From an uncultured virus (IMG/VR IMGVR_UViG_3300031975_000839) (Duplodnaviria > Heunggongvirae > Uroviricota > Caudoviricetes): a stretch of 64,000 bases of DNA. The notes beneath the pieces were generated by a model that did no database searches, was not told the origin of the DNA, and worked only from the letters and a program-made list of their open reading frames with translations. Positions 3,866 through 43,668 of the stretch are shown one piece after another; position 1 is the stretch's first letter; every line of letters begins with the position of its first letter. A program made the position numbers and the translations under genes. Location: the IMG/VR virus record IMGVR_UViG_3300031975_000839, one strand, 5' to 3'.

Positions 3866-4139
3866 TTTCTTTTCCTTGTTCATCAATTATATCAACTAAA
3901 ATATCACCTATAAGATTTGACCAATCTTCACCAAATTTTTCTTTAGGTATTAAATTATTGTCTAGTATATCAAATTCAAACTTCAATGGCAAGTTACCAT
4001 CTGTATTTTCTTCACCTAAAGAAACTTTTCCATACTTATAAACCACTCCATGAAATTTACCTTTAGTAATTCCTATAAGCTGCATTTCTTCATCACGATT
4101 TGTAACATAGGTATAATAATCTTTTATATTATTCAACAT
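3816..4139 (-). CDS. Conserved small protein upstream of gp41 (gp40-like position)
   Basis: 107 aa, GVVYKYGKV motif, syntenic with T4-like gp40. Confidence 0.5.
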   Translation of the reverse strand: MLNNIKDYYTYVTNRDEEMQLIGITKGKFHGVVYKYGKVSLGEENTDGNLPLKFEFDILDNNLIPKEKFGEDWSNLIGDILVDIIDEQGKENDKSDDRENDTNSTST

Positions 4140-5690: not shown

Positions 5691-5700
5691 ATTATTTCTC

Positions 5701-6375
5701 CTATGCAGTATATGTAGACTCTGGCTCTAACGCAATCCAATAATCAACATTCTTTCCTTTACCACTAAAGTGTGAAATGTTTTTAGATGATATCTCAACA
5801 TCATATTCGTTATCCATCATCTTAAGATTTTCTGTCTTAAAATAAAACTTAAAACTACCATCACCATTTGTAGTAATATCAGTAGAGTAATTATTTGCAG
5901 TATCGTTTTTCTTATCTTTTGCAGTTAAGAAAGTTCCACTACCATTTTTCTCAAGAACTAAATCAGGAGCTCCTATTACACCAGCTGCTCTTTTAATCTT
6001 TGATAACTCACTACTACTCATTGTAAATGTTACTTCTTTTGAAGGCATGGTAATCATTTTTGATGGTGATGTTACCACAGATGGGTCTGAATAATAATAC
6101 TTCAAAGAATTTTTAGTATTATTTTCTTCAGTAATTAATACATGATTATCTTGGAAATCTAGTATTGGACTTTTAAATAAAGATAGAGCTGCAAGAAATT
6201 CATTTAAATCATAGATTGCAATTTCTTTTGCAAAATCTTCTTCTACTTCTGCTTTTGCAATAATGTTTTTCATTGCAGACATTGTAGTTAAAGTCTTACC
6301 TTGTTTAATTACCAAGTTTTGATTAATTGATGCAAAGTTCTTTAAAACTGATATTGTGTGTTCACTTAGTTTCAT
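5701..6375 (-). CDS. gp45: Sliding clamp
   Basis: MKLSEHTISVLKNFASINQN...IYDLNEFL...YWIALE, typical of T4-like gp45. Confidence 0.95.
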   Translation of the reverse strand: MKLSEHTISVLKNFASINQNLVIKQGKTLTTMSAMKNIIAKAEVEEDFAKEIAIYDLNEFLAALSLFKSPILDFQDNHVLITEENNTKNSLKYYYSDPSVVTSPSKMITMPSKEVTFTMSSSELSKIKRAAGVIGAPDLVLEKNGSGTFLTAKDKKNDTANNYSTDITTNGDGSFKFYFKTENLKMMDNEYDVEISSKNISHFSGKGKNVDYWIALEPESTYTA

Positions 6376-6661
6376 TATCATTCTCCATATTATTAATGTG
6401 TAGTGCAATTATACCATAGTGTAAGACTTTTAGCAAGTCTTTTCTATTCTTTCCACCTTTTTTTCCATATCGCTGTGCATACTTCATAATGTTACCAATA
6501 CAGAAACCCTCTCCATGCCCAGAGTCTATAATAAACTCTGTGGCTTGAAATTTGTTACGACTATAATGTTGCTCATATGTTTCGTCAATATATTTTTTTA
6601 ATTCTGATAGAACATTATCTTCACTATATTTGTATGATATATTTTTCTTTCTTCTAATCAT
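6362..6661 (-). CDS. DUF3310-like conserved phage protein
   Basis: QHYS...GFCIGNIMKYAQRYGKK...DLLKVLHY. Confidence 0.7.
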   Translation of the reverse strand: MIRRKKNISYKYSEDNVLSELKKYIDETYEQHYSRNKFQATEFIIDSGHGEGFCIGNIMKYAQRYGKKGGKNRKDLLKVLHYGIIALHINNMENDNETK

Positions 6662-6663
6662 AA

Positions 6664-7332
6664 TTAACCTTTACTATATTGAACAGTATATTTTAAAGAT
6701 AATATTCTAAGATTATCATCTCCACTAAATGGTATTGGCTGCCAACGCACCCAAGATGGAAATACAACAAATCTGCCAATCATCGGTGTAACTAACTTAT
6801 CTTGTTTTGGTTTAGTTAGTAGAACATCAGACATTGTGTTACTACCCCAATTGAAATATATTTTTCCATCATAACTGTTCACATTTTTTTCACTCGCACT
6901 TGATGGTACTTTTAAAAATAATAAAGAGCTAATTAATATTTCTCTTTTAGAAAAATCTGTATCACCATCTATAGGGTGAGTATATGTTTTTTCATTTAGT
7001 TCCATAATTTTTATTTCAGAACAGTCAACTGGTATACTCACTAACTGGTCACCTTGAAGTGATAAAGGTATTTGGTCAGAATATAACGACAAATATGTTT
7101 GAGTTGCATTTTTAAAAATGTTTGTTAATGCTTTTGGAACATCATCATCTTTTTGAATTATTTTATTAGCATCAAAATATTGATTAGCTTCATCAACAAA
7201 GTTTAAAGGTAGTTGCCCATGCACAAAAGAAAATTGTTTTATATGCTCAAATCTTAAATCAATTTCTGGTTTAGGTGTATCATCTTCTTTAACTTCTTCT
7301 TCTTTTTTATTCACATCAAAAGTATTTTTCAT
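6664..7332 (-). CDS. Degenerate TIGR02466-like 2OG-Fe(II) oxygenase paralog, metal ligands apparently lost
   Basis: Aligns by eye with 8789..9520 (FNWG...PKQDK...VFPSW) but lacks HxH and the distal His. Confidence 0.6.
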   Translation of the reverse strand: MKNTFDVNKKEEEVKEDDTPKPEIDLRFEHIKQFSFVHGQLPLNFVDEANQYFDANKIIQKDDDVPKALTNIFKNATQTYLSLYSDQIPLSLQGDQLVSIPVDCSEIKIMELNEKTYTHPIDGDTDFSKREILISSLLFLKVPSSASEKNVNSYDGKIYFNWGSNTMSDVLLTKPKQDKLVTPMIGRFVVFPSWVRWQPIPFSGDDNLRILSLKYTVQYSKG

Positions 7333-7348
7333 TTTTTTATCTCCATTG

Positions 7349-7965
7349 TTAAATATGTTCTATAGTAATGTTACCAGCAATAACCACTCTTTTTTCATCA
7401 ATTAAACTTTTTGGAACAGAGTGATGAGTGTTTGCTGGAAATAGTAAAAGTAAATCATCAGACGGAAAAACTTCATCAACATAGTCTGGATATCTTGCAA
7501 CTGATTTACCATTTTGAACAACTGTATCGTGAAATCTTAAAGGTGATGAGCCTACTGGTGCAAAAGGATAATAAGTAAAAGCCCAAAGATATGGGTGATG
7601 GTGATGTGGTTTTGCATAATCATCTTTTCCATATATACTACCCCAACACTCTTTTACTTCGTGTTTAATTGGAACTTTTAAAACAGAATACATAAGTTTA
7701 TTTTCAATTGTTTTTGCAAGTTTTTTAAACTCGTAAACTTCATCATGTAAATGCCACTTAGTGTGGTGAGCATGAATATTAGTAAAATATAATCCCTCTT
7801 GTTTATCTGACCAAGAGTTATCTTTTTTTATAATCTGAAGTAATCTTTTTCTTTCCTCTAAAGATAAATTTAGATAAGATTTGTAGTATATCTTTTTTTC
7901 TAAATTTTCTATATTTGAAAAACTTTTAAGAGTTAGTTTATTGCTGTTTTTTTCCAAGTCCACCA
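7349..7965 (-). CDS. TIGR02466-like 2OG-Fe(II) oxygenase
   Basis: WGSIY...PHHH...AFTYY...FPANTHHSV...RVVIAGN; start uncertain, probably a GTG/TTG after GGAGG near 7953-7965 rather than 8110. Confidence 0.7.
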
Positions 7966-8777
7966 CCGCCTCCATAACGAAATGAGTTTTTCTTAAAAAC
8001 ATTTTTAACTTTGTCTTGCTCTTCTTTTGATAATTCTTTAAATTTAAATCCCATATCTGGTGAATATAAATTACAATTTGCAGAAAAAGTTCTTCTTTCT
8101 CCCTCGCCATGAAAAGGCATGACTGCGTGTTTCAACCAGTTTGGAAATATAAGTAATGTTCCAACTTTTGGTTTAACAAATTCTTCACCAGCTAAATATA
8201 ATGCTCTAGTATCAGACTTATTTAAATTACTCCAATTGAAATATGTAAATCCGTCTACATTACCACTTGCATCATTAAAAAATATTCTACCATCACTATC
8301 TGGCTCTGGTATATCTTCAATACATTTTGGAACTTTTAAATACATAATCATAGACAAACCACCAGGCGTTTTAACACCATGATCGTGTAATGGATTATAA
8401 TCACCAGCATAGCTATGAACTGTCCATGCTTCAAAAATATCTGGGTGGGTATCACTATGCCCTATCGTATTTAAATATTGACTGCAACATTTATCTAAAA
8501 GTTCTTTAACTATCTTTCCAGTGTCATTATTAAAAATATCAAAGTCTAGCTGTGCAGATTTTTTATCTTGACGAATTTGTCCAACTAAACCTTTAGTGTA
8601 ACTATTCTTTACTGTTGCATTACCAGCTACTTCTCCAAAGTTAGGATCATGTGGTATTACATCTTCATCAATATATTTGTTCATCATATCAACAAAATTT
8701 GTAGGCAACTCTGCTTTAAATGTGTAAGTTAGTATTCTCGGTATTACTTGTGTTTTTATATCAAAATGTGAATCCAT
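7938..8777 (-). CDS. TIGR02466-like 2OG-Fe(II) oxygenase
   Basis: WTVHSYAGDYNPLHDH...YLKVP...FPNWLKHAVMPF...ERRTFSAN. Confidence 0.8.
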   Translation of the reverse strand: MDSHFDIKTQVIPRILTYTFKAELPTNFVDMMNKYIDEDVIPHDPNFGEVAGNATVKNSYTKGLVGQIRQDKKSAQLDFDIFNNDTGKIVKELLDKCCSQYLNTIGHSDTHPDIFEAWTVHSYAGDYNPLHDHGVKTPGGLSMIMYLKVPKCIEDIPEPDSDGRIFFNDASGNVDGFTYFNWSNLNKSDTRALYLAGEEFVKPKVGTLLIFPNWLKHAVMPFHGEGERRTFSANCNLYSPDMGFKFKELSKEEQDKVKNVFKKNSFRYGGGGGLGKKQQ

Positions 8778-8788
8778 AATTAAATTCC

Positions 8789-9520
8789 CTATTTGGTATC
8801 TCTGTTAATTTTAAATTCAGTTTTAAAGTTAGCAGATAATGTTCTTCGTTCACCATCTCCATAAAATGGCATTACTTGATGTTTTAACCAGCAAGGAAAT
8901 ACTAAAAATTTTCCTACCTCTGGTTTAACAAATTTATCTTGTTTTGGCCTTAAGGTTAAATAATCAGCAGATGTATTTGTTCCCCATACAAAATGAGTAG
9001 ATCCATCTGTTACACCACTATTTTCATAAAAGTAATTACTTGATTCGTCTATTTCCTCAATTTGTGGTGGAACTTTACAATATAATATGCAAGAAAAAGA
9101 CATAACTTTTTTATCATAACTCACATCATGGTCATGTAAAGGATTATAATCACCAGAGTAACTATGCACTGTCCAAATTGAAAAACACTCCACAGGTATT
9201 TTATCGTATTGGTCTTCTGGCAATGGAAAAGTTCCAATGTTTTGTAGAAGGCGTTTACCAGCAACTCCTAATATTTGCATAAGAGATTGCACGACTGGTG
9301 CTTTTTTATCAAGGTCTAACTGTGCAGACAATTCGTGTTGTTTTATTTGTCCAACTAAGTGGTTTGAATAATCTCTTGCTTTAGCTCTATTTTCATCAAT
9401 ATATGAGTTTAATTCTTCCATATAATTTAATGGAAGTTTACCCTCAATCATAGTTACAGCTGGCATACTAACTGTTTTTAAATTAAATGCATCATTTTTA
9501 CTTGGTTTACTTAAACTCAT
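8789..9520 (-). CDS. TIGR02466-like 2OG-Fe(II) oxygenase (paralog of 7938..8777)
   Basis: WTVHSYSGDYNPLHDH...FPCWLKHQVMPF...ERRTLSAN; AGGAG RBS before the ATG at 9520. Confidence 0.8.
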   Translation of the reverse strand: MSLSKPSKNDAFNLKTVSMPAVTMIEGKLPLNYMEELNSYIDENRAKARDYSNHLVGQIKQHELSAQLDLDKKAPVVQSLMQILGVAGKRLLQNIGTFPLPEDQYDKIPVECFSIWTVHSYSGDYNPLHDHDVSYDKKVMSFSCILYCKVPPQIEEIDESSNYFYENSGVTDGSTHFVWGTNTSADYLTLRPKQDKFVKPEVGKFLVFPCWLKHQVMPFYGDGERRTLSANFKTEFKINRDTK

Positions 9521-9531
9521 ATTATAATCTC

Positions 9532-10026
9532 CTAAACTTTTACACCCCATTTTTTTGCTAGTTCTTCTTTTGAAATAGAGCCTTGTTGGTCTACTTCTTT
9601 TTTATGTTCTTCATATGCTTCAACATCATCATCAGTTATCGTATTTTTTGATTCAAGTAATTTTATCTGATTCATATTATCTTCAAGAATATTATCAACT
9701 AGCATTGGTATTTCATTTAATACCATTTTCATACCCTGTCCACTTTTCATCATAGAGTCTATTTTTTCTTCCATCTCTACTTGAAGTAATGCTTTTGCAA
9801 CAGATGGACTCATTTTATTATCCTCTAATAATGGAAGTTTGTTTTGTAAAAAATCATCTATTTTATTTTTATATTCTATTTCAAGAAGTGCTTTAGCAGT
9901 TTTTTCAATTCTTCTTTTTTTCTCTTGTAACTTTTCTACTATCGCATCTTTTTGTCTGCGTTTTTCAGTTGCCTCTTGAACTTCTTTAATTAGTTCTGGG
10001 TCACTTGAACTTTTAGTAAAAGCCAT
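9532..10026 (-). CDS. Hypothetical helical/coiled-coil protein
   Basis: 164-aa ORF with AGGAG RBS; internal repeat AKALLEIE/AKALLQVE. Confidence 0.6.
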   Translation of the reverse strand: MAFTKSSSDPELIKEVQEATEKRRQKDAIVEKLQEKKRRIEKTAKALLEIEYKNKIDDFLQNKLPLLEDNKMSPSVAKALLQVEMEEKIDSMMKSGQGMKMVLNEIPMLVDNILEDNMNQIKLLESKNTITDDDVEAYEEHKKEVDQQGSISKEELAKKWGVKV

Positions 10027-14244: not shown

Positions 14245-14276
14245 AAAAAAAGAATTGTTTAAAATCAAGGACTTAC
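14245..14276. repeat. 32-bp dispersed repeat, copy 2 (upstream of the CobT-like promoter)
   Basis: aaaaaaagaattgtttaaaatcaaggacttac; part of it also forms an inverted repeat with 14284-14293. Confidence 0.7.
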
Positions 14277-14804
14277 TGTAAACCCTTGATTTTCTTGATA
14301 TTTTTCTGCTCGTTTTTTAACCTTTTTAAGTCTTTTTAGAGCCATATTGAGTTTTAAATTGCTTACTTTTTGTGTAAAATCTGTGCCTTCCATATGGTCA
14401 TATTCATGCTGGAATACTCTACACTCTAAACCAAACATTGCTTTTTTGTGCAATTCACCTTTTTCATCTTCATAAGAAACTTCAATTCCATCAGGTCTAC
14501 TTACCTTTAACCACAAGCCTGGATAGGATAAACACCCCTCGTCCATTACAGTTTTTTTGTTTGATACTGATAATATCTTTGGATTAAAGCACGCAATAAT
14601 TTCTCTTTCTTTTACATTTGAGTACATTACAAATACTCTTTCCATAAAACCAATTTGATTTGCAGATAATCCAATCCCTTGAAAATTTTTCATACTATCA
14701 ATCAAATCCTCTTTGATTTTATCTCTATCAATTTCATCACTACATTTTTCAATTGGTATTTTTAGCATTGGGTGTGTTGATTCTATTAATTTGTATACTG
14801 ACAT
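14265..14804 (-). CDS. def: Peptide deformylase
   Basis: GIGLSANQIG, EGCLS, QHEYDH motifs. Confidence 0.95.
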   Translation of the reverse strand: MSVYKLIESTHPMLKIPIEKCSDEIDRDKIKEDLIDSMKNFQGIGLSANQIGFMERVFVMYSNVKEREIIACFNPKILSVSNKKTVMDEGCLSYPGLWLKVSRPDGIEVSYEDEKGELHKKAMFGLECRVFQHEYDHMEGTDFTQKVSNLKLNMALKRLKKVKKRAEKYQENQGFTVSP

Positions 14805-16258
14805 TATTTCATAAACTCCTCTAATGGTGATGTTACTTTAATTCTTACACTTGCAATTTCATAATATTTCTTTTCTTTTTCAATTCCTATAAAATCAAAA
14901 CTTTCATCTTTTGCAGCCATACCAGTTGAGCCACTTCCCATAAATGGGTCTAATACTGTACCACCTTTTGGTGTTACAAGTCTGCAAAGATATTTCATCA
15001 ATTTAATAGGTTTTACTGTTGGGTGTATATTTTTCCTCTCTGTTACAAATCTATCAGTAACATCATTATCTATTTTAGAATCTTTCATATCATGTGCATT
15101 TCTACGACCAGGCATACTTGATGCTTTCTTTATTGGTAAATTATCCAATCCTTGATCTCTTTCCGACTTTGATGCTTTTGCACAATAGAAGTATCTTGAT
15201 GCATCTCCACTATCCTCATATTCTATTGTATATTGTAAAGATTTCATTCCAGAATTATTATTTGTCCAAACTTTATCATCTTTTCTAGGTTGTCGGTTTA
15301 CTGCTTTTCTTTTTACATTCCGAGTCTGACCAAAACTTAATTTGTCAATACCTATATTTTCTTTAGATTGTTTGCCTTGGTCACGAAAATCTGGATTAGT
15401 ATCTGGATATTTTGCTTTACCCTTTGTGCCAGTTTTTGGGAATATGTCTTTCATAACATCACTACCATCGTGAATTACATTTGCTGGGAATCTACCATCT
15501 TTAGTTCTTTCTTTTATTTCTTCTGGTGTAATTTTTCTTATTTTGAATGTGTTAGTATCTTGATAACCTTTTCCACCGCCACCAGTTTTATGCCACCCAC
15601 TTCTGTCATTTTCATTTGCATATTCAACTCTACACTCATCAATATTAATACCACCAGTTCCATGTTTCAATACATTATCTGCAACAGTCTTTTCTGATAT
15701 TGGTTTTCTTGCCATTACGATTGGTTCATGTGCAGGCTTAAGGTGTGTTCCCCAACCATCCCAATTTCTACCATCTCCAGTTGCAAAATCATATTCTTTT
15801 GTTTTTGTAGTTCTATAAAAAGTGTCAATATCGTTTCTAGTATTACCTTCAATTTTTTCTCTTTTTACACCATGCATTTCAGAAGAGCTATCTTTTGTTC
15901 CATGACGAACACCTCTATGAATTTTATCTATATTTTTTCCAATATTCATACTCTTTGGAAATCCACTTCCATAAATCCACATAATCTGATCTCTGATTTC
16001 AAAACCAGCATCTTCTATTGCAACGGCCATTCTATGGTAAGTTCTACTTCCAGAAAATGCAAGAAGATGTCCGCCAGGTTTCAATAATTGAAATGCAAGT
16101 TCCCATGTTTCTTTCTGGAACGCTATTCCTGTTGAATCCCAACCCTTACCCATGAATCCAAGTTCGTAAGGTGGATCTGTAACAACGGAATCTACCTGAA
16201 CACCATCATCAATAAGTTTTTTCATTTCTTGAATACAATCACCATTAAGTAATAACAT
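14804..16258 (-). CDS. Beta-class N6-adenine/N4-cytosine DNA methyltransferase
   Basis: N-terminal TDPPY, C-terminal HPTVKP...LDPFMGSGSTG. Confidence 0.9.
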   Translation of the reverse strand: MLLLNGDCIQEMKKLIDDGVQVDSVVTDPPYELGFMGKGWDSTGIAFQKETWELAFQLLKPGGHLLAFSGSRTYHRMAVAIEDAGFEIRDQIMWIYGSGFPKSMNIGKNIDKIHRGVRHGTKDSSSEMHGVKREKIEGNTRNDIDTFYRTTKTKEYDFATGDGRNWDGWGTHLKPAHEPIVMARKPISEKTVADNVLKHGTGGINIDECRVEYANENDRSGWHKTGGGGKGYQDTNTFKIRKITPEEIKERTKDGRFPANVIHDGSDVMKDIFPKTGTKGKAKYPDTNPDFRDQGKQSKENIGIDKLSFGQTRNVKRKAVNRQPRKDDKVWTNNNSGMKSLQYTIEYEDSGDASRYFYCAKASKSERDQGLDNLPIKKASSMPGRRNAHDMKDSKIDNDVTDRFVTERKNIHPTVKPIKLMKYLCRLVTPKGGTVLDPFMGSGSTGMAAKDESFDFIGIEKEKKYYEIASVRIKVTSPLEEFMK

Positions 16259-17954
16259 GACTAAAATTCCTCACTTTCTCAAATTTAATTGTGCTTCTAA
16301 ATTTATCAACTAATGTATCTTGTTTATGACTAATTACAAATACATTCTCATCTTCAAGAGTGTTTAATATTTTAAGGAACTCATCTGTTCCAGCACCATC
16401 AAGTGAACTATCAAATATTTCATCAAGTATAAGTAAATTAGTATTAACACTATTTTTCATCTTTGCAATTGCTCTCCATGTGAATAGAAGTGCAAGGTCA
16501 ATTCTCATTTTCTCACCCTCACTAAATGATGCATAATTAAACTCATCTCTATGCCTTGACTTAATAGTTTCAGTAAAGTTTTCATCTAATGTAAAGTTTA
16601 CATAAAAATCCATAGAGTTAAGATACTTGTTGATTAATTTATTCATTATAGGTAGATACTGCTTAATTACTTTTGTTTTAATGCCAGTATCTTGTAGTAT
16701 AGCACGAGCTGCATCAGAATATGATTTTTCTTCTTTTAGAGATTTTCTTTGCACCTCTATTGAATCTGAATTATTTTTAAGTTCAGTTAATTTTTCTATA
16801 TCACTATCACTCACACTATTTGTATTAAATGAATCAATCTCTACTTGTAACTTAACATTAAATTTTTCTAGTTGATTTATTGATGCATTTAACTCTGCAA
16901 GTTTTACTTGGTTTTTTCTAATTGTTTCACTTGCATTTACTATTTCAGAAAATCTAGTTTCCAACTTATTATTTTCTATTTCAAGTTTATCTAATCCATC
17001 TTTTAATTTATCTATGGCTTCTTTTTTTTCTTTAATCATTTTTTCTTTAAATGATTTTTCAATCTCTTGCTTACAAGTAGGACACTCAGTATACTTTTCA
17101 AAAAACTTCATTGTCTTACTGTGTGTTTTATGTTTTTCTTTTATTGTTGTCTGATAGTTTTGCAACTCTGTTTTTTTTGTTTCAATATCACTTTTATCAG
17201 ATATACTTTTTAATAGATTATCACTTTCAGTAGTAACTTTATTTCTCTCATTTGTTTTATTTGTTATTTCTTTTTTATTTGTATTAATTGAGTTTGTTTT
17301 TTGTTCTATAATCTTATCTTTATTTTTCTTTAAATCATCAATATGATTTTCTTGTAAATTAATTTTTTCTGTAATTAAATTAAAATTATAATCTACTTCT
17401 TTTATTTCATCTTGCAATGTTTTAATATTTTGTTTAAGCAATAAATTCATAATAGAAAAAATTTGTATATCAAGTATTTCTTCAACAACTTCTCTACGAT
17501 GTGTTGACTTCAGTTGCATAAATGGAACAAAAGTAGAACTACCAAGTATAACTACTTGTGTAAATGAACGATAATTAAGTTTGAGTATTTGTTGCTCTAA
17601 TATTTTTTGATAATCACGAACACTAGCTTCTTGGTTTAGCATATTATCATTTAAATAAATTTCAAACTTATTTGGTTTGATACCTCGTATCACTTTGTAG
17701 TTTTTACTTGCAATACTAAACTCAATCTCAACCATAGTTGAGCCACCATTAATTGAATTAACAAGTTGACTTTTACTAATGACACGAAATGGTTTTCCAA
17801 ACAAACCAAAACATAGTGCATCAAGAATTGTAGACTTACCAGCACCATTTTCACCTATAATGAGTGTAGTAGGATTTCTATTTAATTGTATCTCTGTAAA
17901 ATTATTTCCAGTTGACAGAAAGTTTTTCCATCTCACACTTTTAAAATTTATCAT
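16245..17954 (-). CDS. gp46: Recombination exonuclease ATPase subunit (Rad50/SbcC-like)
   Basis: GENGAGKST, CPTC zinc hook, FSEGEK, LILDEIFDSSLD. Confidence 0.95.
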   Translation of the reverse strand: MINFKSVRWKNFLSTGNNFTEIQLNRNPTTLIIGENGAGKSTILDALCFGLFGKPFRVISKSQLVNSINGGSTMVEIEFSIASKNYKVIRGIKPNKFEIYLNDNMLNQEASVRDYQKILEQQILKLNYRSFTQVVILGSSTFVPFMQLKSTHRREVVEEILDIQIFSIMNLLLKQNIKTLQDEIKEVDYNFNLITEKINLQENHIDDLKKNKDKIIEQKTNSINTNKKEITNKTNERNKVTTESDNLLKSISDKSDIETKKTELQNYQTTIKEKHKTHSKTMKFFEKYTECPTCKQEIEKSFKEKMIKEKKEAIDKLKDGLDKLEIENNKLETRFSEIVNASETIRKNQVKLAELNASINQLEKFNVKLQVEIDSFNTNSVSDSDIEKLTELKNNSDSIEVQRKSLKEEKSYSDAARAILQDTGIKTKVIKQYLPIMNKLINKYLNSMDFYVNFTLDENFTETIKSRHRDEFNYASFSEGEKMRIDLALLFTWRAIAKMKNSVNTNLLILDEIFDSSLDGAGTDEFLKILNTLEDENVFVISHKQDTLVDKFRSTIKFEKVRNFSHVIT

Positions 17955-18754
17955 ATAAATTCTTCCAATGTTGCAGTTCCATATTTTTCTGATACTTTGT
18001 TTATATTACTAGAATTATGTTGTTTAATATTACCATCTATGAAAGGTATATTATTTGTAAATGTGTATTCTGTTTCGCCAGGTTTTTTTATTTTCCATTG
18101 TAAGTCTTTATCTTTTGGATAATTTATTGTCCATTCCATAGTAGAGTTTTTTAAATACTTTTTAGATTTTTTGTTTATTGGATAAATGTATCTAAACTGT
18201 TTACCCCATACTCTAGTAAAACCTAACTCACCCATTTTTTTATCATTTGGTCTTGGGCCATACTTTGTATCATCTCTACCCATTTCTTTTTTCATTTTTC
18301 TTTGAATAGTCCTAAAGTGAACTTTTTCTCCACTTTCACTTAAATATATGTCTGTCCAAATAAACCCACCATATAAAAAATTAGCAGCTTGATAAACATA
18401 ACCAGGCTTTCCTACAATTCCATCTGCCCATGTGTAAAGATATTTTATTTCTGGTGTGTTTTCTTTTATCCACTTAATAGTTAAACTCTGCATTTGTGAT
18501 TCACTATTTCGTGGCATTTTTTCGTCCATACACATTTTACCTATTTCATAATAATCTGATGTGGTTAAATCTGGAAACATTTTACGAATAGTTCCCATAG
18601 GATTAGTTCCCCACCCTAATGTTAATACACCAACAAGTTCATCATTAACATATGCACCAAGATAGTGTTTAGTTAACTTTGGCATAACTGCACTATAATG
18701 TCTTTGTTGAACAAAGAGTGTTGCAACTCTCCAATCCACTTTTTTAATTATCAA
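17951..18754 (-). CDS. Mom-like (GNAT-fold) DNA modification protein
   Basis: QRHYS...VGVLTLG...EIGKMC...RNSES...TWADG...GYVYQAANFLY resembles the Mu Mom family. Confidence 0.7.
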   Translation of the reverse strand: MIIKKVDWRVATLFVQQRHYSAVMPKLTKHYLGAYVNDELVGVLTLGWGTNPMGTIRKMFPDLTTSDYYEIGKMCMDEKMPRNSESQMQSLTIKWIKENTPEIKYLYTWADGIVGKPGYVYQAANFLYGGFIWTDIYLSESGEKVHFRTIQRKMKKEMGRDDTKYGPRPNDKKMGELGFTRVWGKQFRYIYPINKKSKKYLKNSTMEWTINYPKDKDLQWKIKKPGETEYTFTNNIPFIDGNIKQHNSSNINKVSEKYGTATLEEFI

Positions 18755-20370: not shown

Positions 20371-20997
20371 TTATTGTTTTCCTTTTACATGATTTATAAA
20401 ACCTTTTGTATCATTCAACGCATAACTTAAAATTTGATTAACTTGCAAATGATTAAACCAGCCTGTTGTAATATATTTGTCCTGTGTTGGTGATATGACA
20501 CCACGATGTGTATGAGTAAAATCTGTGGGCCATATTAAAGTCCTACCTTTTACTGGTTTAATTTTTATATTCTGATAATAAAATTCTGTTTCTCCACCAT
20601 CATCTACATCATTTAAATAAGTCATCCATACTAATGCTCTTTGAGGAGGATTACTTGAAGTTCTTTCATTGTGCCATTCAAAAAATCCCTCATTAGGAGC
20701 ATAGTGTTGTATATTAAATCCCTCAAGCATTTCTAACCCAAAAAAACCACAGGAATATTTTTCAGTATATATTTCAGCAAGACTAAACAAATATTTCAAA
20801 TATTTTTGTATTAAAGGATTATTTGTGTATGGTGGAATTGTTAAATCTGTGGAAACTTTTGCAACATTTTTTGTTTTTATACCAGTGCTACCTTTTGTTT
20901 GATGCTCTTCATTACTTTTAAAATATTCTAAAAGTTCATCACAAATATACAAATCTTTATCATCAAGCTGTGCTTGTAATATAAAGTTTTCACTCAT
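20371..20997 (-). CDS. 2OG-Fe(II) oxygenase (P4H-like, HxE variant)
   Basis: WHNE...WMTYLNDVDDGGETEF...THRG...KYITTGW; likely start MSENF. Confidence 0.85.
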   Translation of the reverse strand: MSENFILQAQLDDKDLYICDELLEYFKSNEEHQTKGSTGIKTKNVAKVSTDLTIPPYTNNPLIQKYLKYLFSLAEIYTEKYSCGFFGLEMLEGFNIQHYAPNEGFFEWHNERTSSNPPQRALVWMTYLNDVDDGGETEFYYQNIKIKPVKGRTLIWPTDFTHTHRGVISPTQDKYITTGWFNHLQVNQILSYALNDTKGFINHVKGKQ

Positions 20998-21025
20998 AAA
21001 ATAGTCCTTTTTTAAAATTACAACT

Positions 21026-21054
21026 ATTCTACACAATTAAAGCAGTAATGTCAA
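21026..21054 (-). promoter_or_regulatory. Sigma70-type promoter feeding the 2OG-gp55-gp47 genes
   Basis: TTGACA-17 bp-TAGAAT. Confidence 0.8.
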
Positions 21055-21064
21055 GTCTTATCAA

Positions 21065-21673
21065 TTATTTCCACTTTGCTTGATTAAGACTAATATAATG
21101 TTTATAATCTCTTTCAGTATCATTTGTATCATAAAAATTAAACCAACCAGTAACAATATATTTGTGTTGCGTTGGTGATGTGATGCCACGATGTAAATGT
21201 GTAAAGTCTGTAGGCCATATTACACATTTACCTTTTACTGGTTTAACTTTTAATTTTTGGTAAAAAAATTCTGTTTCTCCACCATCGTCTACATCGTTGA
21301 GATATGTCATCCATACTAATCCACGCTGCCATGATTGAGTTGTTGTTCTCTCACAGTGCCAAGCAAAATAACCCTCATTTGGTGCGTAGTGTTGTATATT
21401 AAATGATTCTTTTAGTCCTATTTTAATCCTACCTTTAAGACTGTATTTCTCAAGATATTCAATTAATTTTCCTGATAATTGTTGCACATATTTTTGAATA
21501 GTTGGGTGCTGTGTCCAAGCAACTATAACATCAGTAGATTTTTTAATTTCAGCATCAGTACCATCAGAGGTTAAACCTCTCATTTTTTCATATACATTGT
21601 TTTTATGATATTCAATTAATTCATCACAAACAGATACATCTTTTAACATAGTTTCATATATAAAATTTTCCAT
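21065..21673 (-). CDS. 2OG-Fe(II) oxygenase (tandem paralog of 20371..20997)
   Basis: WHCE...WMTYLNDVDDGGETEF...LHRG...KYIVTGW. Confidence 0.85.
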   Translation of the reverse strand: MENFIYETMLKDVSVCDELIEYHKNNVYEKMRGLTSDGTDAEIKKSTDVIVAWTQHPTIQKYVQQLSGKLIEYLEKYSLKGRIKIGLKESFNIQHYAPNEGYFAWHCERTTTQSWQRGLVWMTYLNDVDDGGETEFFYQKLKVKPVKGKCVIWPTDFTHLHRGITSPTQHKYIVTGWFNFYDTNDTERDYKHYISLNQAKWK

Positions 21674-22134: not shown

Positions 22135-23585
22135 ATCTTTATCCTATCTATTTCATAATTAAATTGTTCTTCATTGTAGATATTTATTCTGTCTTGAAAA
22201 TGGGACATTGTATAATTAATTCTTCCTTTGTAGGAAAGATCGTCTGCGATGTCGTAAAGCCGAGTGGTATTGTTATCTTTAGAAATTCGCAACCCTCGTC
22301 CAATGCTTTGTAGCACTCTAATTCTTGACTTACTTGGACTAGAGAACACGACATTATGGAGATTCCTAATATTAATACCAGTGCTAAATGTGCCGTACGA
22401 TGCAACAATAATCGCATCTGTTTCTTTTTCAGTGATTGCACGAATCTTTTCCCTAGTTTCTGTATTTGTTCCACCATATACAAAAAATACCTTTCTTTTA
22501 AAATCTTTCATTAGTGAGTGTAACACAACTCCATGTTTTTCTACAAGTTTAAAAAGACACAAAGTGTTTCCATTAAGAGTATCGCACAGCCGAACAATAA
22601 AACTATTGCGTTTATATAAACTAACCAAGAAATCCATTTCCTCTGCATATGTAAAATCCTTAGATTTTTTACAATCGTCCTCTGAATGTTTTAGCACTAC
22701 ACATTTTATATCAAGAGTTGCAATAGTTTTTTTATCCATCAACTCTTTTGTAGTTGTTACTTTTTTTACTGAGCCAAACAAACCCTCTAAAATTAATCTA
22801 TGAGTTTGTGTTCCATCTAATGTTCCAGTTAATCCAAATCTATATTTACACATATCAAGTTTTGTCATAATACCAGTAAGTGATTTTGCTTTGAACATGT
22901 GAGCCTCATCACCTATGACACACCCAAACTGACTAAAATATTTTTTAGGTAATTTATATAAAGATTGCCATGTTGATATGAATATAGATTTGTCTGACTG
23001 TAAATCATGCCCAGCATAAATTCTATGTAAATGTTTTTCACTCCACCCATAATCAAGAAAATCAGAAAACATTTGCTCAACTAAAGATGTCGTTGGAACA
23101 AGTATTAATATCTTTTTATCCTGTAAAGTTTTATAGTATCTTACTAGTGCATAAATGATAAGTGATTTACCAGAAGCAGTTGGGCTTACTAATAAACATC
23201 TATTTTTTTGTATCGCATGACAAAACGCATCTGATTGATAATCTCTTACTTCTAATTGTTTTCCTTTTGACATTGGTTTGAGAGAAATGATATATTCCCT
23301 TGCTATATTACAGTTAATCTCTCTATCACTCTCTATATCGTTCTCAGAGGTATATTCTATATCATTTCTATTACAAAACTCTTTTATGTAAGGTAATAAT
23401 CCCACATAAATTTTACCAGTCTGCTGTGAAAATAATCTTATCTTACCATCCCAAACACGACTACGATAGGTAGGCATAAACTTTGCACCAGGCACTTCAA
23501 AGGTAAAATAATCTGCAAGTTCTCTTGAAACTGCATCATCTACTTCTATGTGATAATAGACTTCGTTAAGTTTAGATATGTGCAT
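22131..23585 (-). CDS. uvsW: UvsW SF2 DNA helicase
   Basis: SPTASGKS, GDEAH, GLTGT, QSIGRGLR. Confidence 0.95.
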   Translation of the reverse strand: MHISKLNEVYYHIEVDDAVSRELADYFTFEVPGAKFMPTYRSRVWDGKIRLFSQQTGKIYVGLLPYIKEFCNRNDIEYTSENDIESDREINCNIAREYIISLKPMSKGKQLEVRDYQSDAFCHAIQKNRCLLVSPTASGKSLIIYALVRYYKTLQDKKILILVPTTSLVEQMFSDFLDYGWSEKHLHRIYAGHDLQSDKSIFISTWQSLYKLPKKYFSQFGCVIGDEAHMFKAKSLTGIMTKLDMCKYRFGLTGTLDGTQTHRLILEGLFGSVKKVTTTKELMDKKTIATLDIKCVVLKHSEDDCKKSKDFTYAEEMDFLVSLYKRNSFIVRLCDTLNGNTLCLFKLVEKHGVVLHSLMKDFKRKVFFVYGGTNTETREKIRAITEKETDAIIVASYGTFSTGINIRNLHNVVFSSPSKSRIRVLQSIGRGLRISKDNNTTRLYDIADDLSYKGRINYTMSHFQDRINIYNEEQFNYEIDRIKI

Positions 23586-24231
23586 ATTGTAAAGTGTTTG
23601 GCTCACCATATTCACCACGAGCTATAATGTTCCAAGCAATACTAATTCTTTCATCATTTGTTTGAGGCACCCAATGCTGTAACCAAGATGGAAAAATAAT
23701 TCCTATTCCTATTGAAGAAGATTGAATACTATTAAATTTTAATTCCATTAAATCTGAATTTAAATTATTTTGTTCTTTTTTTCTTGGCCTAAAAACACTA
23801 GCTTGTGGCCTAGGGTCAAAAAAAACTATTGGAGAAGAATCTAATGATGATTGTAAATAAAATACTCCAGATAAAAAATTATTTGAGTGCGTGTGTGGGT
23901 GATGTGCAGACCTAGATGAGTTAGGTTTAAGTATGTTTCCCCACATATTTGTTATTTCTAATTTTTCATACCCATATCCTAAATCTTCCATTACATCCTC
24001 AGTATGTTTATAGATAGAATTAACTAATGGTTCAAAAACTTTAGATTCATGTAAGTGACGATTTTCTTGAGTTCCTAATCTCCGAACTTTTTTACCATCT
24101 TTTTCTGATATACTTTCAGATGCGATTAAATTGTTCATATCATTTCTTTCATTATTTTTAAAATTATGTTCAAATTTATAAATACAAGTAGGAAACGCAT
24201 CAATTCTTTCCATATTTTTTACATTAGCCAT
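23572..24231 (-). CDS. TIGR02466-like 2OG-Fe(II) oxygenase
   Basis: MWGN...HPHTHSNNFLSGVFY...FFDPRP...FPSWLQHWV...RISIAWN. Confidence 0.85.
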   Translation of the reverse strand: MANVKNMERIDAFPTCIYKFEHNFKNNERNDMNNLIASESISEKDGKKVRRLGTQENRHLHESKVFEPLVNSIYKHTEDVMEDLGYGYEKLEITNMWGNILKPNSSRSAHHPHTHSNNFLSGVFYLQSSLDSSPIVFFDPRPQASVFRPRKKEQNNLNSDLMELKFNSIQSSSIGIGIIFPSWLQHWVPQTNDERISIAWNIIARGEYGEPNTLQYAHI

Positions 24232-24773
24232 GTTACTATACTCCATCTTTCACTATCAGTTATTTTTTTTACTTCATGTGGAAACATAAAGTTAGAAGGA
24301 AAAATAATACCTGAACCCATTTTAGTTTTATACTTATTACCAGACACTACAAGTTCACCACCCTTGTAATTATCATTTAAAAATAATAATGCACTTACTT
24401 GTGGAAAACCATATTCTTGTCCATGCGAGTGGTGTATATTATCAGTATGCTCTGACATAAATCCACCAACTGAATATCTGTTTATTCTAAATCCAGAATG
24501 TCTTTGGCAACTAAATTTATCAAATTTTTCTGAATATTTTTTAATTACTTTACCAAAAAAATCATTAATTATACTAACTACATTTTTATCTTTCACCCAC
24601 ATATCATCCATAACAACTCTTTTATTACTATTTTTTATTTCCCCAGAATCGTTTGCATATGTTGATGGTTTTAGTTGCCCACTATTTTTTGCAAATTTAA
24701 TTATATCTTGGCATTTATTTTTAGGAATAATATCTTCATAATAACCTATCCATTTTTTTAAACTATTCATCAC
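24219..24773 (-). CDS. 2OG-Fe(II) oxygenase (P4H-like)
   Basis: EHTD...LNDNYKGGE...FPSNFMFPHEV...RWSIVTW. Confidence 0.85.
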   Translation of the reverse strand: MMNSLKKWIGYYEDIIPKNKCQDIIKFAKNSGQLKPSTYANDSGEIKNSNKRVVMDDMWVKDKNVVSIINDFFGKVIKKYSEKFDKFSCQRHSGFRINRYSVGGFMSEHTDNIHHSHGQEYGFPQVSALLFLNDNYKGGELVVSGNKYKTKMGSGIIFPSNFMFPHEVKKITDSERWSIVTWLM

Positions 24774-25210: not shown

Positions 25211-25789
25211 TTATATTGTTACTATTTCATATATTTTATATTGAAAATTTACCTCTACAGTTAAATACTCTACATCAGTAGCAGCTTGTGTATAACTTAA
25301 TCCACCTAAAGATGTTGGAAAAATATCTTGAAAACGAACTTCTACTAGTGGATTATTTTTATTGGATAATATTGTAAGTGTTGCATCACCATACATTCCT
25401 CTATCTGGTGTTGCTGGTTGTGTATCTCCAATATCATTACTTGTTCCTAAAGTTGCTTGTGGACTGTTTGAAGTTGAGGATCTAAAAGTTGCAAATTGTG
25501 TTCTACTTTTAGGAAAACCAGTTCCAGTAATCCAATCATGTATTGTTATATAATTTTCTAAAAACTCATCTACAATAAAAGATATTGTTAAATCTTCATA
25601 GTCTGGCTTATCACCTAGTGTTGGAATATTTTTAAATGGTGTATTGTAAGTTGCAGCTGGTAAACTAACGCCAGGCAAATTTGCAGCTGTAGTAAAAAAC
25701 TCAACTTTAGGAAGTTGATTAATACTAAACTTAAATTGAGTTGGTGAAGAATAGTCTAGTTTAGTTGGTTGTCTTGATATTGATGTCAT
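25211..25789 (-). CDS. gp3: Tail completion/tube terminator protein
   Basis: SPTQFKF...PKVEFF...ANLPG...FIVDEFLENY...DATL.ILS...FPTSL; likely start MTSISRQP. Confidence 0.85.
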   Translation of the reverse strand: MTSISRQPTKLDYSSPTQFKFSINQLPKVEFFTTAANLPGVSLPAATYNTPFKNIPTLGDKPDYEDLTISFIVDEFLENYITIHDWITGTGFPKSRTQFATFRSSTSNSPQATLGTSNDIGDTQPATPDRGMYGDATLTILSNKNNPLVEVRFQDIFPTSLGGLSYTQAATDVEYLTVEVNFQYKIYEIVTI

Positions 25790-25794
25790 AACAT

Positions 25795-25802
25795 TATTTA
25801 TA
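25795..25802 (-). promoter_or_regulatory. Late promoter TATAAATA immediately before the gp3 ATG
   Basis: Exact motif 5 nt upstream of the ATG at 25789. Confidence 0.7.
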
Positions 25803-25806
25803 ATGT

Positions 25807-25836
25807 AAAAAAGGGACTCCATAAGAAGTCCCTTTT
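25807..25836 (-). terminator. Rho-independent terminator after pqqA
   Basis: AAAAGGGACT...AGTCCCTTTTTT hairpin. Confidence 0.75.
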
Positions 25837-25859
25837 CTGTTTGACAAATTTAAATTTGA

Positions 25860-25931
25860 TTACTTGTTAGCAATATACATTGTTACTTCAAAACCAAATC
25901 TCATTTCTTCGTATGATGGTGTATTCCACAT
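25860..25931 (-). CDS. pqqA: Coenzyme PQQ precursor peptide PqqA (23 aa, MWNTPSYEEMRFGFEVTMYIANK)
   Basis: Translated by hand; W-x-x-P and GFEVTMY (E-x3-Y) signature; AGGAG RBS at 25940-25944; own terminator. Confidence 0.9.
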   Translation of the reverse strand: MWNTPSYEEMRFGFEVTMYIANK

Positions 25932-26010
25932 GATAATATCTCCTATTATAATATTACTCTTATATAGTATTTTTAAATTGTTTTAACCATACAGAAAATC
26001 ATTATTTTTA

Positions 26011-26044
26011 CAAAAAAAAAAGGGAAACCGAAGTCTCCCTTTTT
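26011..26044 (-). terminator. Rho-independent terminator after gp23
   Basis: AAAAAGGGAGAC-TTCG-GTTTCCCTTTTTTTTT. Confidence 0.85.
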
Positions 26045-26074
26045 AGTTTTGGTTGGTTATTCCAACTCTTGTTA

Positions 26075-27406
26075 TTACATAAGGTTTGTAACTTTAACTC
26101 GTCTGTAATACTTGTTAGTGTTACCAGTAATACTGATTGCACCCTCGGCTGTTGCAGCAACTGTTCCAGTATGGAATGGGTTAGCAGCAATTCCGTAACG
26201 AGTCTTAAATCCAATTTTTGGTTGGAAAGTGTGCTCACCAACTGCACGAACCATTTGTAATGGAACATATGGGCAGTAGAACATACCAGCATCGTATGGT
26301 GATGTACCTTTGTAACCAACAACATAGTATTGTGATGCAGCTACATTTGCAGCATATGGATCAACATATACTTTATATCTACCATTAAGTACACCAGCAA
26401 ATGTTGTTGTAGTGTCATCAACATTTAAGTTGTTGTTAAGAGCAGGAGCATAGTCAAGAACACCAGCCATTTGAAGTGCAGATGCAACATCAGCAGAACA
26501 AAGGATCATGTTACCCTTTCCTCTACGAGTTTGTTGACCGATTGCGTTTGCGTCTCTTTCAACTGCGAACATTAAACCCTTGAACTTCTCAACACTCCAT
26601 CTACCATTAGAATCTGTGTCAAGGTCAAAGATACCACCAGTTGTTGTATTAGTTTGAGCACCAGCAACAGCTGTTACATAAATGTTTCTAACAACTTCTC
26701 TGTTAATTTCTGCAAGAATTTCAGCAGATAAGATGTTTGCAAGTTCTGTTTCTGCATCTAAACCATGAATTGCTTTTAAGTCTTGAGCAAGTTCCATTGA
26801 ATATTCTGCTTTAAGAGCTCTAGTAACTGCTGTTACTGTGTGCTTCTCAATTGAGAAAGCCATCTCAGCGAATACATTAGTAGATGTGTTATCACCTAAT
26901 GCTTCACCTTGTGCAGTTGTCATACCAGTTACAGTTTCGTATGTTCCAGCAGATGGGCTGTCATTTAATACAGCAGGGTTAGTTGCAGTATCAGTAACAT
27001 CACCACCACCAGTTGTACTAGCTTTGTTCTGGTTAGAGAAATCTGGCATAGACTCGTCAGCAAGTGCTTCAGCACCAGTTTGCGAATTGAATCTTGAACG
27101 CATTGCAAAGATAAGTCCAGTTGGGCCTGTCATTGGTTGCACACCACAAATGTCATATGCAATTAAGTTTGGCATTGATCTTCTAACTAAAGAAATGAGA
27201 ATCGGATCCCAATTATCAACTGAAGATCCAGTTGAGTTAGATGGTGCAGCCTCTGATAGAAATGATCTATCTTCTCTTAAGGCTTTTTCTTGGTTTTCAA
27301 GAATTAAAGTAGTAACTGCCCTCTTGTAAGAATCGCTGATTTCAGGTAAATCAGGATGTGCAAGGACTGGCTTCCACTTTTCTTGTAGATCTTGTGTTTG
27401 ATACAT
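26075..27406 (-). CDS. gp23: Major capsid protein
   Basis: DPILISLVRR, GVQPMTGPTGLIFAMR, RALKAEYSMELAQDLKAIHGLDAE, FQPKIGFKTRYG. Confidence 0.98.
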   Translation of the reverse strand: MYQTQDLQEKWKPVLAHPDLPEISDSYKRAVTTLILENQEKALREDRSFLSEAAPSNSTGSSVDNWDPILISLVRRSMPNLIAYDICGVQPMTGPTGLIFAMRSRFNSQTGAEALADESMPDFSNQNKASTTGGGDVTDTATNPAVLNDSPSAGTYETVTGMTTAQGEALGDNTSTNVFAEMAFSIEKHTVTAVTRALKAEYSMELAQDLKAIHGLDAETELANILSAEILAEINREVVRNIYVTAVAGAQTNTTTGGIFDLDTDSNGRWSVEKFKGLMFAVERDANAIGQQTRRGKGNMILCSADVASALQMAGVLDYAPALNNNLNVDDTTTTFAGVLNGRYKVYVDPYAANVAASQYYVVGYKGTSPYDAGMFYCPYVPLQMVRAVGEHTFQPKIGFKTRYGIAANPFHTGTVAATAEGAISITGNTNKYYRRVKVTNLM

Positions 27407-43098: not shown

Positions 43099-43668
43099 TT
43101 AATCAAACCATTTGTCTTTAGAATGATGTAACCAAGTTACAACAGCATACCTAACTCCATTTGTAACAGGCAATACTTTGTGAGGATATAACCGATTAGA
43201 TGGAAACATACAAATTTGTCCAGCTTTTAAATTTATTTTTTCCTCATACTTAATTGCATTTGTATAATCATCTCTAAAAAAGATTAGCTCTCCACCCTCG
43301 TAATCTTCATTTAAAACAATAGATACAGATAAAAGTCTATTAAATTCACCTACATCAGTATGTAATTTATATTCTTGTCCTTTTTCATATCTCATTAAAC
43401 CTAATGCTTCCACCTGAGAACAACTATTCTCATAATTTTGACATTTTTTTACATATTCAAAATAAGATTCTTTAATGGTGTGGATTAAAATTCTGTGATA
43501 CCTAGAATTAAGTAAAGATAATTGTGAGCAAGTGCGATAATCACTTGATCCAGTGCCTGTCCATGACTGTTCCCATTTTCTTGAATATTGAGATTCTTTT
43601 ATGATATTATTGCACACATTAGGAGTCAAAGCATCCATTACATGGATGTAGTCTTTTAATTTATCCAT
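43099..43668 (-). CDS. 2OG-Fe(II) oxygenase (P4H-like)
   Basis: LHTD...LNEDYEGGE...FPSN.LYPHKV...RYAVVTW. Confidence 0.85.
   Translation of the reverse strand: MDKLKDYIHVMDALTPNVCNNIIKESQYSRKWEQSWTGTGSSDYRTCSQLSLLNSRYHRILIHTIKESYFEYVKKCQNYENSCSQVEALGLMRYEKGQEYKLHTDVGEFNRLLSVSIVLNEDYEGGELIFFRDDYTNAIKYEEKINLKAGQICMFPSNRLYPHKVLPVTNGVRYAVVTWLHHSKDKWFD

Follow-up and report, generated by a model that had tools for sequence, protein, structure and literature searches.

A stand-alone pqqA mini-gene behind the major capsid gene of a marine T4-like phage, proposed to supply the precursor peptide of PQQ

The DNA analysed here (the window, 64,000 nucleotides (nt) from an uncultured virus, IMG/VR record IMGVR_UViG_3300031975_000839) carries a very short gene for PqqA, the precursor peptide of the cofactor pyrroloquinoline quinone (PQQ). 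We propose that it is a functional, host-derived pqqA in an autonomous cassette, by which the phage supplies the consumed PQQ precursor to the pathway of its host, and we put the probability of this reading at a little under 0.8. An initial annotation of this DNA had noted a 23-residue open reading frame (ORF) at 25860-25931 with an AGGAG ribosome-binding site, and both are present, on the minus strand: the ATG occupies 25931-25929 and the stop codon, after 23 codons, 25862-25860. The peptide translated from this ORF is MWNTPSYEEMRFGFEVTMYIANK. On the way to PQQ, the Glu and Tyr of a Glu-x3-Tyr pair in PqqA are cross-linked, and in the window peptide this pair reads E15-V-T-M-Y19. When the peptide was compared with the two curated models of the family, it passed both, as expected if its earlier naming as a PqqA with the Glu-x3-Tyr pair was right: PF08042 (Pfam) gave 41 bits against a cut-off of 21.1 (E 1.7e-10, profile positions 1-19 of 19) and the equivalog TIGR02107 gave 47.4 bits against a cut-off of 20 (E 1.1e-12, positions 1-21 of 21). 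The window holds 459 ATG-started ORFs of at least 20 amino acids (aa), and the PqqA model gave no match in 14 control genomes and a single one in a near-identical 70-kb IMG/VR record (G001, the twin of the window, 39% complete by CheckV). With E values of 1e-10 to 1e-12 against 459 ORFs, a chance match is excluded. By its full-length match to both models, the window ORF is a genuine PqqA.

Judging from the pattern of changes among relatives, pqqA is under purifying selection in phages. We aligned the window with three further loci, of which L090 and L167 had been found through their gp23 capsid genes and hence independently of the peptide, and L094 belongs to a more distant phage. The pqqA ORF is free of insertions and deletions (indels) in all three, while the spacer upstream of it contains indels. 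Identity to the window over the ORF and over the upstream spacer is 64/72 and 57/81 for L090, 56/72 and 51/102 for L167, and 58/72 and 38/93 for L094, with synonymous/non-synonymous changes of 3/3, 9/4 and 5/4, respectively. Amino-acid changes in L090 and L167 occur only at positions 3, 4, 6 and 23, and in the three loci together only at positions 3, 4, 6, 8, 21 and 23. A wider set, the best 80 viral loci in IMG/VR, was found with the peptide itself, using the search pattern EMRFGFE, so that the invariance of E9-E15 is there by construction, and a regular expression required E15 and Y19. All 80 loci hold one intact 23-residue ORF each, with Glu15 and Tyr19 in every one; V16, T17, M18 and N22, left free by the search pattern and by the regular expression alike, are invariant in 80/80 as well, and positions 3, 4, 6, 7, 8, 20, 21 and 23 vary. 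E15 and Y19 are likewise invariant in a separate alignment of eight sequences (A1).

The ORF is situated in a 252-nt gap on the minus strand. Upstream of it lies gp23, the major capsid gene (26075..27406; Pfam Gp23, 486.4 bits; phrog_138, major head protein), and downstream a tail-tube-family gene (gp3/gp19-like, 25211..25789; phrog_45 'tail tube', E 5.5e-34), the homologue of which in Pelagibacter phage Mosig is annotated as 'putative tail tube protein'. The name gp3 for the latter is tentative and follows cyanophage gene order. Being a host-type metabolic gene flanked by viral hallmark genes, the window pqqA is a viral auxiliary metabolic gene by context.

To describe this junction independently of pqqA, we used a gp23 protein search that is blind to it. 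The best 80 IMG/VR relatives have gp23 proteins 70-97% identical to that of the window, and 62 of them also hold the tail-tube gene. The distance from gp23 to the tail-tube gene is 81-163 nt in 48/62 and 309-1530 nt in 14/62. Six of the short junctions were examined, and in these the gp23 terminator is followed by TATAAATA and then by the ATG, with a short spacer before the ATG in one; TATAAATA itself is found in five of the six, none of which has pqqA, and CTAAATA in the sixth. Only 2/80 of the closest gp23 relatives, or 2/14 of those with long gaps, carry pqqA (L090 with gp23 97% and L167 with gp23 96% identical). Five other long gaps that were examined contain unrelated small ORFs instead. 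The contents of the long gaps (loci L090 and L167-L245, corresponding to window positions 25790-26074) include coiled-coil-like proteins of 70-110 aa and one ORF of 207 aa. Compared across these loci, the gp23/tail-tube junction is an insertion hot spot, and since only 2 of the 80 relatives have pqqA, the gene is a recent accessory gain in the immediate lineage of the window. It also occurs at the same gp23/tail-gene junction in the distant phage L094, whose gp23 is 63% identical. The reading frame is conserved in L090, L167 and L094 in the gp23-gp3 interval, where the initial annotation had suggested looking for it.

A hot spot of this kind might hold pqqA as a neutral passenger, a young scrap of host DNA at a recombination-prone junction with no role in infection, and both its rarity among close gp23 relatives and the various unrelated small ORFs found among the 14 long-gap loci fit such an origin. 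A passenger is hard to square, however, with an ORF that is the best conserved part of the cassette, has synonymous changes in the core and amino-acid changes at the variable positions, has been kept at the same junction in L094, and is intact in 80/80 viral loci and in four unrelated groups of cultured methylophages. We consider the passenger explanation highly unlikely.

By its layout, pqqA is a cassette of about 200 nt, in which a box and a promoter-like region precede the ribosome-binding site and the ORF, and a terminator of its own follows. In the alignment of the four sequences (A2: the window, L090, L167 and L094) the order is the gp23 terminator, the box TAATGATTTTCT, an AT-rich promoter-like stretch, the ribosome-binding site and ORF, a second terminator, an ATAAATA core, and finally the ATG of the tail gene (25789). 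The intrinsic terminator of gp23 (26007..26044, minus strand) consists of a hairpin at 26044-26017, with a 12-bp stem and a UUCG loop, followed by a T-run. It folds with -15.1 kcal/mol (z -3.2), which was equalled by 0/200 shuffled sequences; its stem shows compensatory changes in L094, and relatives without pqqA have a hairpin and T-run at this position as well. The intrinsic terminator of pqqA (25807..25838, minus strand) is a hairpin at 25838-25807 with a 14-bp stem, again followed by a T-run, and folds with -19.6 kcal/mol (z -5.1; equalled by 0/200 shuffles). L090, L167 and L094 have a hairpin at this position too. Folding both hairpins against shuffled sequences confirms what had first been proposed by eye: pqqA stands alone, with the gp23 terminator on one side and a terminator of its own on the other. 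The 135 nt of leader and ORF showed no structure above shuffles (z +1.3), and an Rfam scan of 25500-26300 (E up to 1) returned 10 weak matches, all far below gathering scores, and no known RNA family.

The Shine-Dalgarno sequence AGGAG (25940..25944, minus strand) lies 8 nt ahead of the pqqA ATG, and the commonest 8-mers upstream of viral pqqA genes are GGAG-type words. Promoter-like hexamers occur at chance frequency (9 sites against 8.9 expected). Before the tail-tube gene there is a T4-type late-promoter-like motif, TATAAATA (25795..25802, minus strand), which has the sequence of the T4 late promoter and whose ATAAATA core is invariant in the four-sequence alignment. The start of the tail-tube gene given in the ORF listing, 25822, falls within the pqqA terminator hairpin. 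Most likely the gene starts instead at the ATG at 25789, which is the aligned start in the relatives and lies a few bases past the conserved TATAAATA.

Next to these signals, the cassette contains a conserved box, ATGATTTTC within TAATGATTTTCT (25994..26002, minus strand), 71 nt ahead of the pqqA ATG, the letters of which are invariant in the four-sequence alignment, including the distant L094. Bacterial pqqA genes often have TCATGAAAATCATGA-like or TAATGATTTTC-like words 106-149 nt ahead of the ATG, and the phage cassettes have the same words 62-91 nt ahead of it. The box, as TAATGATTTTC or TCATGAAAATCATGA, is near-palindromic and recurs upstream of bacterial and phage pqqA genes (loci L004-L166). 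A pattern derived from it, ATGA-W3-TC on either strand, was found in 42/103 distinct bacterial pqqA upstream regions as opposed to 127/6221 control windows, and in 15/76 distinct viral upstream regions as opposed to 54/2859 control windows; Fisher values for this pattern are inflated, because the motif was defined after the data were seen. In one marine bacterial locus (L034) and one phage locus (L092) the box is letter-identical across 19 nt. Our reading of these similarities is that the gene was captured along with its native control region. Possibly the box is a promoter/operator element that belongs to the PQQ regulon and moves along with pqqA.

The sharing of the box with bacterial pqqA upstream regions could also mean that the DNA matters rather than the peptide, either as homology for recombination or integration at a host pqqA or because the box titrates a host regulator, and a 27-nt exact match to one bacterial locus inside the ORF points in the same direction. 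However, the phage is T4-like and no integrase family was found among the 57 window ORFs (Pfam, E 1e-5), identity to any of 75 bacterial loci does not exceed 59/72 nt, and conservation tracks codons and not DNA. We give a role of the DNA alone hardly any credence.

PqqA is only the starting material of a pathway. The leader of PqqA is bound by PqqD, its Glu and Tyr are joined by the radical SAM enzyme PqqE, and proteases, PqqB and PqqC finish PQQ; one PqqA peptide is consumed per PQQ, and the enzymes of the pathway are catalytic. During infection, we suggest, the peptide would be produced from phage DNA, host PqqD and PqqE would bind it and cross-link Glu15 to Tyr19, and host proteases, PqqB and PqqC would complete its conversion to PQQ. 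Since one PqqA is spent per PQQ and the enzymes are catalytic, the phage would be supplying only the consumable, short-lived part. The PQQ-dependent periplasmic dehydrogenases of the host, such as the XoxF-type methanol dehydrogenase in methylotrophs, might in this way be kept loaded as host expression declines. Expression of the phage pqqA, its processing by host enzymes and a benefit to the phage are the parts of this proposal that we infer.

Consistent with such a division of labour, a Pfam scan of 57 window ORFs (E 1e-5) did not find any of PqqB, C, D and E, the four family models found none in G001 or in the complete Melnitz, P19250A, Venkman and MEP301 genomes, and of the 80 viral loci none has one within flanks of up to 4 kb on each side. 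As a positive control, the PqqB-E models scored above their cut-offs in 4/5 candidate host genomes. The lack of pqqBCDE in the phage, which in the initial annotation went with the idea that it relies on those of the host, thus holds for the window, its twin and four methylophage genomes, with pqqBCDE present in candidate hosts. In a 1.1-Mb genome labelled Methylophilaceae (G004, behind locus L069), we observed one pqqA and none of PqqB, C, D and E was found. This could reflect an incomplete metagenome-assembled genome or a lone-precursor lineage.

A pqqA without its usual company is not peculiar to phages. In three OM43-type genomes (G002, G003 and G006, 1.1-1.3 Mb) the single pqqBCDE cluster lacks a neighbouring pqqA; each genome has three pqqA genes elsewhere, every one of them hundreds of kb from pqqBCDE. 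These orphan copies indicate that the company of pqqB-E is usual and not obligatory for the PqqA family. More broadly, pqqA was found in 41/41 sampled genomes of the OM43-type family (Methylophilaceae), with 1-9 matches each and at least two in 40/41, and in 23/26 genomes of a second family, where two copies some 5 kb from each other are typical. That streamlined genomes have several unlinked pqqA genes fits a limiting precursor that acts in trans, and precursor dosage seems to matter. Demand for PQQ is probably high as well: one study gives xoxF as the most transcribed OM43 gene, with tens of transcripts per cell (PMC5120137), and another describes an OM43 culture medium supplemented with PQQ (PMC9004378). 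Both facts speak for a high demand.

We then asked what the peptide says about the host. The stretch EMRFGFEV occurs in at least 613 bacterial sequences, mostly from Burkholderiales/Betaproteobacteria (including Methylophilaceae and Rhodocyclaceae), with few from Gammaproteobacteria. Two bacterial subtypes can be told apart, MWTTPAATEMRFGFEVTMYV[MC]NK in Methylophilaceae including OM43 and MW[STN]KPEYTEMRFGFEVTMYIANR in other families, some of its carriers being marine genomes of low GC, and the window peptide is a mixture of the two: Y7 and I20-A21-N22 are as in MW[STN]KPEYTEMRFGFEVTMYIANR, and T4 and K23 as in MWTTPAATEMRFGFEVTMYV[MC]NK. It is identical to each subtype at 18-19/23 positions, so an assignment of the host family from the peptide was rejected, the identity to subtypes of two different families being alike. 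The DNA of the gene was also tried and set aside as a guide to the host: its best match among 75 bacterial loci is 59/72 nt, to a low-GC locus, which may only mirror AT-rich codon use. No tRNA gene that could serve as a host clue was found in the window. Given the taxonomic spread of the core, the best reading is that the host is a betaproteobacterial PQQ producer. This fits the earlier suggestion of a PQQ-using beta- or gammaproteobacterial, possibly methylotrophic host, as EMRFGFEV is mainly betaproteobacterial and every cultured phage record matched (see below) infects Methylophilales.

The peptide sequence also bears on whether the product helps the pathway at all. It could be a decoy that competes for PqqD/PqqE to stop PQQ synthesis, or it could mature into something other than PQQ, and its leader does differ from the OM43-type host peptide at N3, S6, Y7 and E8. 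Yet the core E9-Y19, with both the Glu and the Tyr, is identical to that of bacterial PqqA, and a decoy would be expected to lose one of the two; moreover, some phage copies equal host peptides, that of P19250A being the commonest Methylophilaceae sequence. As for another product, none of the 80 loci has a modifying enzyme next to the gene, judged by PqqB-E-like proteins. We therefore regard a decoy or a different product as distinctly unlikely, and return to the supply of precursor as the preferred reading.

Several points weigh against that reading. PQQ is a recyclable cofactor, and extra synthesis may not pay within one infection cycle. Since the leader differs from both bacterial subtypes at several positions, recognition by the PqqD of a given host is assumed. 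The phage genome is incomplete, its twin being rated as 39% complete, and pqq genes elsewhere in the phage are possible. The gene is accessory among close relatives, and L168, with a gp23 91% identical, has other small ORFs at the junction and no pqqA. Finally, the RNA contigs examined do not show transcription of the window copy. Six RNA runs share sequence with the window, and contigs of four metatranscriptome runs were aligned to it; such contigs cannot show absence, and their depths cannot rank genes. Parts of gp23 are covered by RNA contigs with 0 mismatches in X15, X16 and X17 (three runs, two studies), and over the pqqA bin (25844-25930) the contigs from X15, X16 and X19 all part from the window sequence at 25876. 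Past that point they encode other C-terminal tails and hence represent pqqA of other phages or hosts. In X19, a salt-marsh metatranscriptome, the pqqA-type contigs over 25876-25930 have the tail YVMNK and a word depth of about 18,000, of about the same order as the deepest capsid-gene-like contigs, contig depth being a poor measure of expression.

To see how widespread the gene is, we searched 50,697 phage records with the peptide by tblastn, and 12 records matched. Nine of these are phages of Methylophilales/Methylophilaceae and belong to four unrelated types: P19250A, Venkman, MEP301, MEP401, MEP402 and four Melnitz strains. The others are one uncultured podovirus from a spring and two 'Acinetobacter phage MD-2021a' contigs, of which the one inspected (L011, CAKLQF020000010.1) is a chromosomal ppk-pqqA-pqqB-pqqC stretch. 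In the seven phage records that were inspected the ORF is intact, with 23-24 codons and the core EMRFGFEVTMY. A statement that all cultured methylophages carry pqqA was considered and rejected in this form; the claim is limited to 9/9 Methylophil* records matched by tblastn, as methylophages lacking the gene would escape such a search. Methylophages that are in the NCBI taxonomy and not among the matches are MEP431-434, HIM624-A, phiMB624-A, Venkman EXVC038S, MG-MTP1 and RSA-MFP1; a DNA search with Venkman matched one Venkman record, and EXVC038S is apparently outside the searched records.

The gene is easily overlooked. It is correctly annotated in 0/10 of the phage records, five of which have no feature there and five a 'hypothetical protein' (the four Melnitz strains and the podovirus). 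An opposite-strand 'hypothetical protein' coding sequence lies over pqqA in Melnitz EXVC044M (L004, MZ577097.1 76100-76195) and in the spring podovirus (L008, MW202481.1 2067-2195). Gene callers miss an ORF as short as pqqA, and so nearly all annotations lack this common auxiliary gene of viruses. In IMG/VR, at least 597 stretches encode a PqqA relative. The best 80 loci have a GC content of 0.30-0.44, 27 of them share homologues with window proteins, and their contexts differ: the neighbour of pqqA may be gp23, hsp20 or a capsid gene only 33% identical, and in other loci terL is close by. These several contexts indicate repeated capture or movement of the gene. Going by these matches, pqqA is common in phages of methanol-eating bacteria.

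The wider proposal that follows is one to which we give somewhat less than even odds: pqqA may be a near-universal signature of phages of PQQ-making betaproteobacterial methylotrophs, captured repeatedly and independently in a cassette that keeps the host operator/promoter box and so plugs into the host PQQ regulon. If this is true, the supply of precursor peptide, and not enzyme capacity, limits PQQ synthesis in streamlined methylotrophs, and pqqA predicts host range, in which case the window would represent a second pelagimyophage-like lineage besides Melnitz that infects methylotrophs and not SAR11. In practice, pqqA would be a cheap marker for host prediction in uncultured marine and freshwater phages, pointing to a PQQ-making host, in all likelihood a methylotroph among the betaproteobacteria. 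The findings suggest that PQQ supply in the abundant methanol oxidisers of coastal waters is limited at the peptide precursor, with its fast turnover, and the gene would be an example of a phage donating a biosynthetic substrate and not an enzyme.

Regarding the phage itself, the window genes are all on the minus strand and the GC content is 32.6%. It encodes a T4-like myophage set (portal, prohead protease, scaffold, gp23, sheath, terminase, and gp15-, gp8- and neck-type proteins) along with UvsW, UvsY, a sliding clamp, a DnaB-type helicase, Hsp20 and a peptide deformylase. Among named phages, Pelagibacter phage Mosig and the four Melnitz phages of Methylophilales come nearest by DNA, their matches being confined to gp23, and six shared proteins are 40-75% identical to those of Melnitz and 46-74% to those of Mosig. 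Near-identical DNA was found in 14 seawater, marine or biofilm DNA runs from five studies, one of which may be where the window comes from. Its gene set and these matches make the carrier a T4-like myophage of marine origin, with Melnitz and the pelagimyophages as relatives. Whether the window is closer to Melnitz (OM43 host) or to Mosig (SAR11 host) was rejected as a guide to the host, as Melnitz is slightly nearer in 5/6 proteins, which is not decisive. The combination hints at a phage with a SAR11-phage-like capsid module that infects a different, PQQ-producing host.

Some other genes of the window are worth recording. An ORF of 2444 aa at 47325-54659, within the structural gene block, matches DUF4815 and Hint/intein-type families (Hom_end_hint, PT-HINT, Vint). 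Ten ORFs match 2-oxoglutarate (2OG)-Fe(II) oxygenase-type Pfam families, eight of them above the curated cut-off; they lie at 4129-9550, 20371-21673, 23572-24773 and 43099-43668, and those at 7349-8110 and 7938-8777 overlap. At 14804-18754, the genes of a Mom-family protein (167.8 bits), an N6/N4 DNA methylase and an SMC/AAA_23-type ATPase lie close together, a grouping suggestive of DNA modification, and the peptide deformylase gene (14265-14804) adjoins this region.

Viral pqqA is not new. The initial annotation had allowed that it might have been noted before in metagenomes, and indeed a Methylophilaceae virus population from Lake Baikal, VP_266, is reported to encode PqqA (Coutinho et al. 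2020, Microbiome 8:163; PMC7678222 / bioRxiv 10.1101/2020.04.02.019802). A 2026 study of reservoir sediment names pqqA among viral phosphate-solubilising genes. Other published mentions of viral pqqA were not found in main texts, and supplementary tables of auxiliary metabolic genes (e.g. Table S4, PMC13188868) may list more; by text search, the main texts of the Melnitz, MEP301 and MEP401/402 papers and of a 2026 paper on two further Methylophilaceae phages do not mention PQQ biosynthesis, and those of the Melnitz, MEP301 and MEP401/402 papers do not name pqqA either. What the window adds is a marine carrier of T4-like type, belonging to a pelagimyophage-like clade in which most members have no pqqA, together with the exact insertion site, the structure of the cassette and an upstream box common with bacteria.

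The Lake Baikal PqqA is likewise a viral precursor peptide, and its gene has been interpreted as auxiliary, boosting the oxidation of methanol by a methylotrophic host. There it belongs to one freshwater population with related viruses that have a viral methanol dehydrogenase, whereas the window is from a marine T4-like myophage, with no dehydrogenase or radical SAM gene seen among the 57 window ORFs scanned with Pfam. The pqqA genes of cultured methylophages (Melnitz x4, Venkman, MEP301, MEP401, MEP402 and P19250A) share the core EMRFGFEVTMY and stand alone as in the window, but are found in other types of phage and at other genome positions, and their peptides are 65-74% identical to that of the window; in Melnitz, for example, the gene lies between a small coding sequence and a tRNA-Leu gene. 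The orphan pqqA genes of Methylophilaceae chromosomes resemble the window copy in family, length, possession of an upstream box and separation from pqqBCDE, and differ in that their box lies 106-149 nt ahead of the ATG instead of 71 nt.

Two well-known kinds of phage gene offer a further comparison. Cyanophages carry psbA, the product of which is a full-size protein subunit with fast turnover in an energy system of the host. By analogy, the window pqqA may follow a similar logic, in that the consumable is carried and the rest is left to the host, with a different product, a 23-residue substrate that is destroyed in the synthesis of a cofactor. Phage morons, described in temperate siphoviruses, are extra genes with their own promoter and terminator between conserved genes. 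The window pqqA resembles them as a terminator-bounded cassette between genes that are adjacent in 48/62 relatives, and differs from them in that its phage is T4-like and its putative promoter is deduced from the conserved box and promoter-like hexamers.

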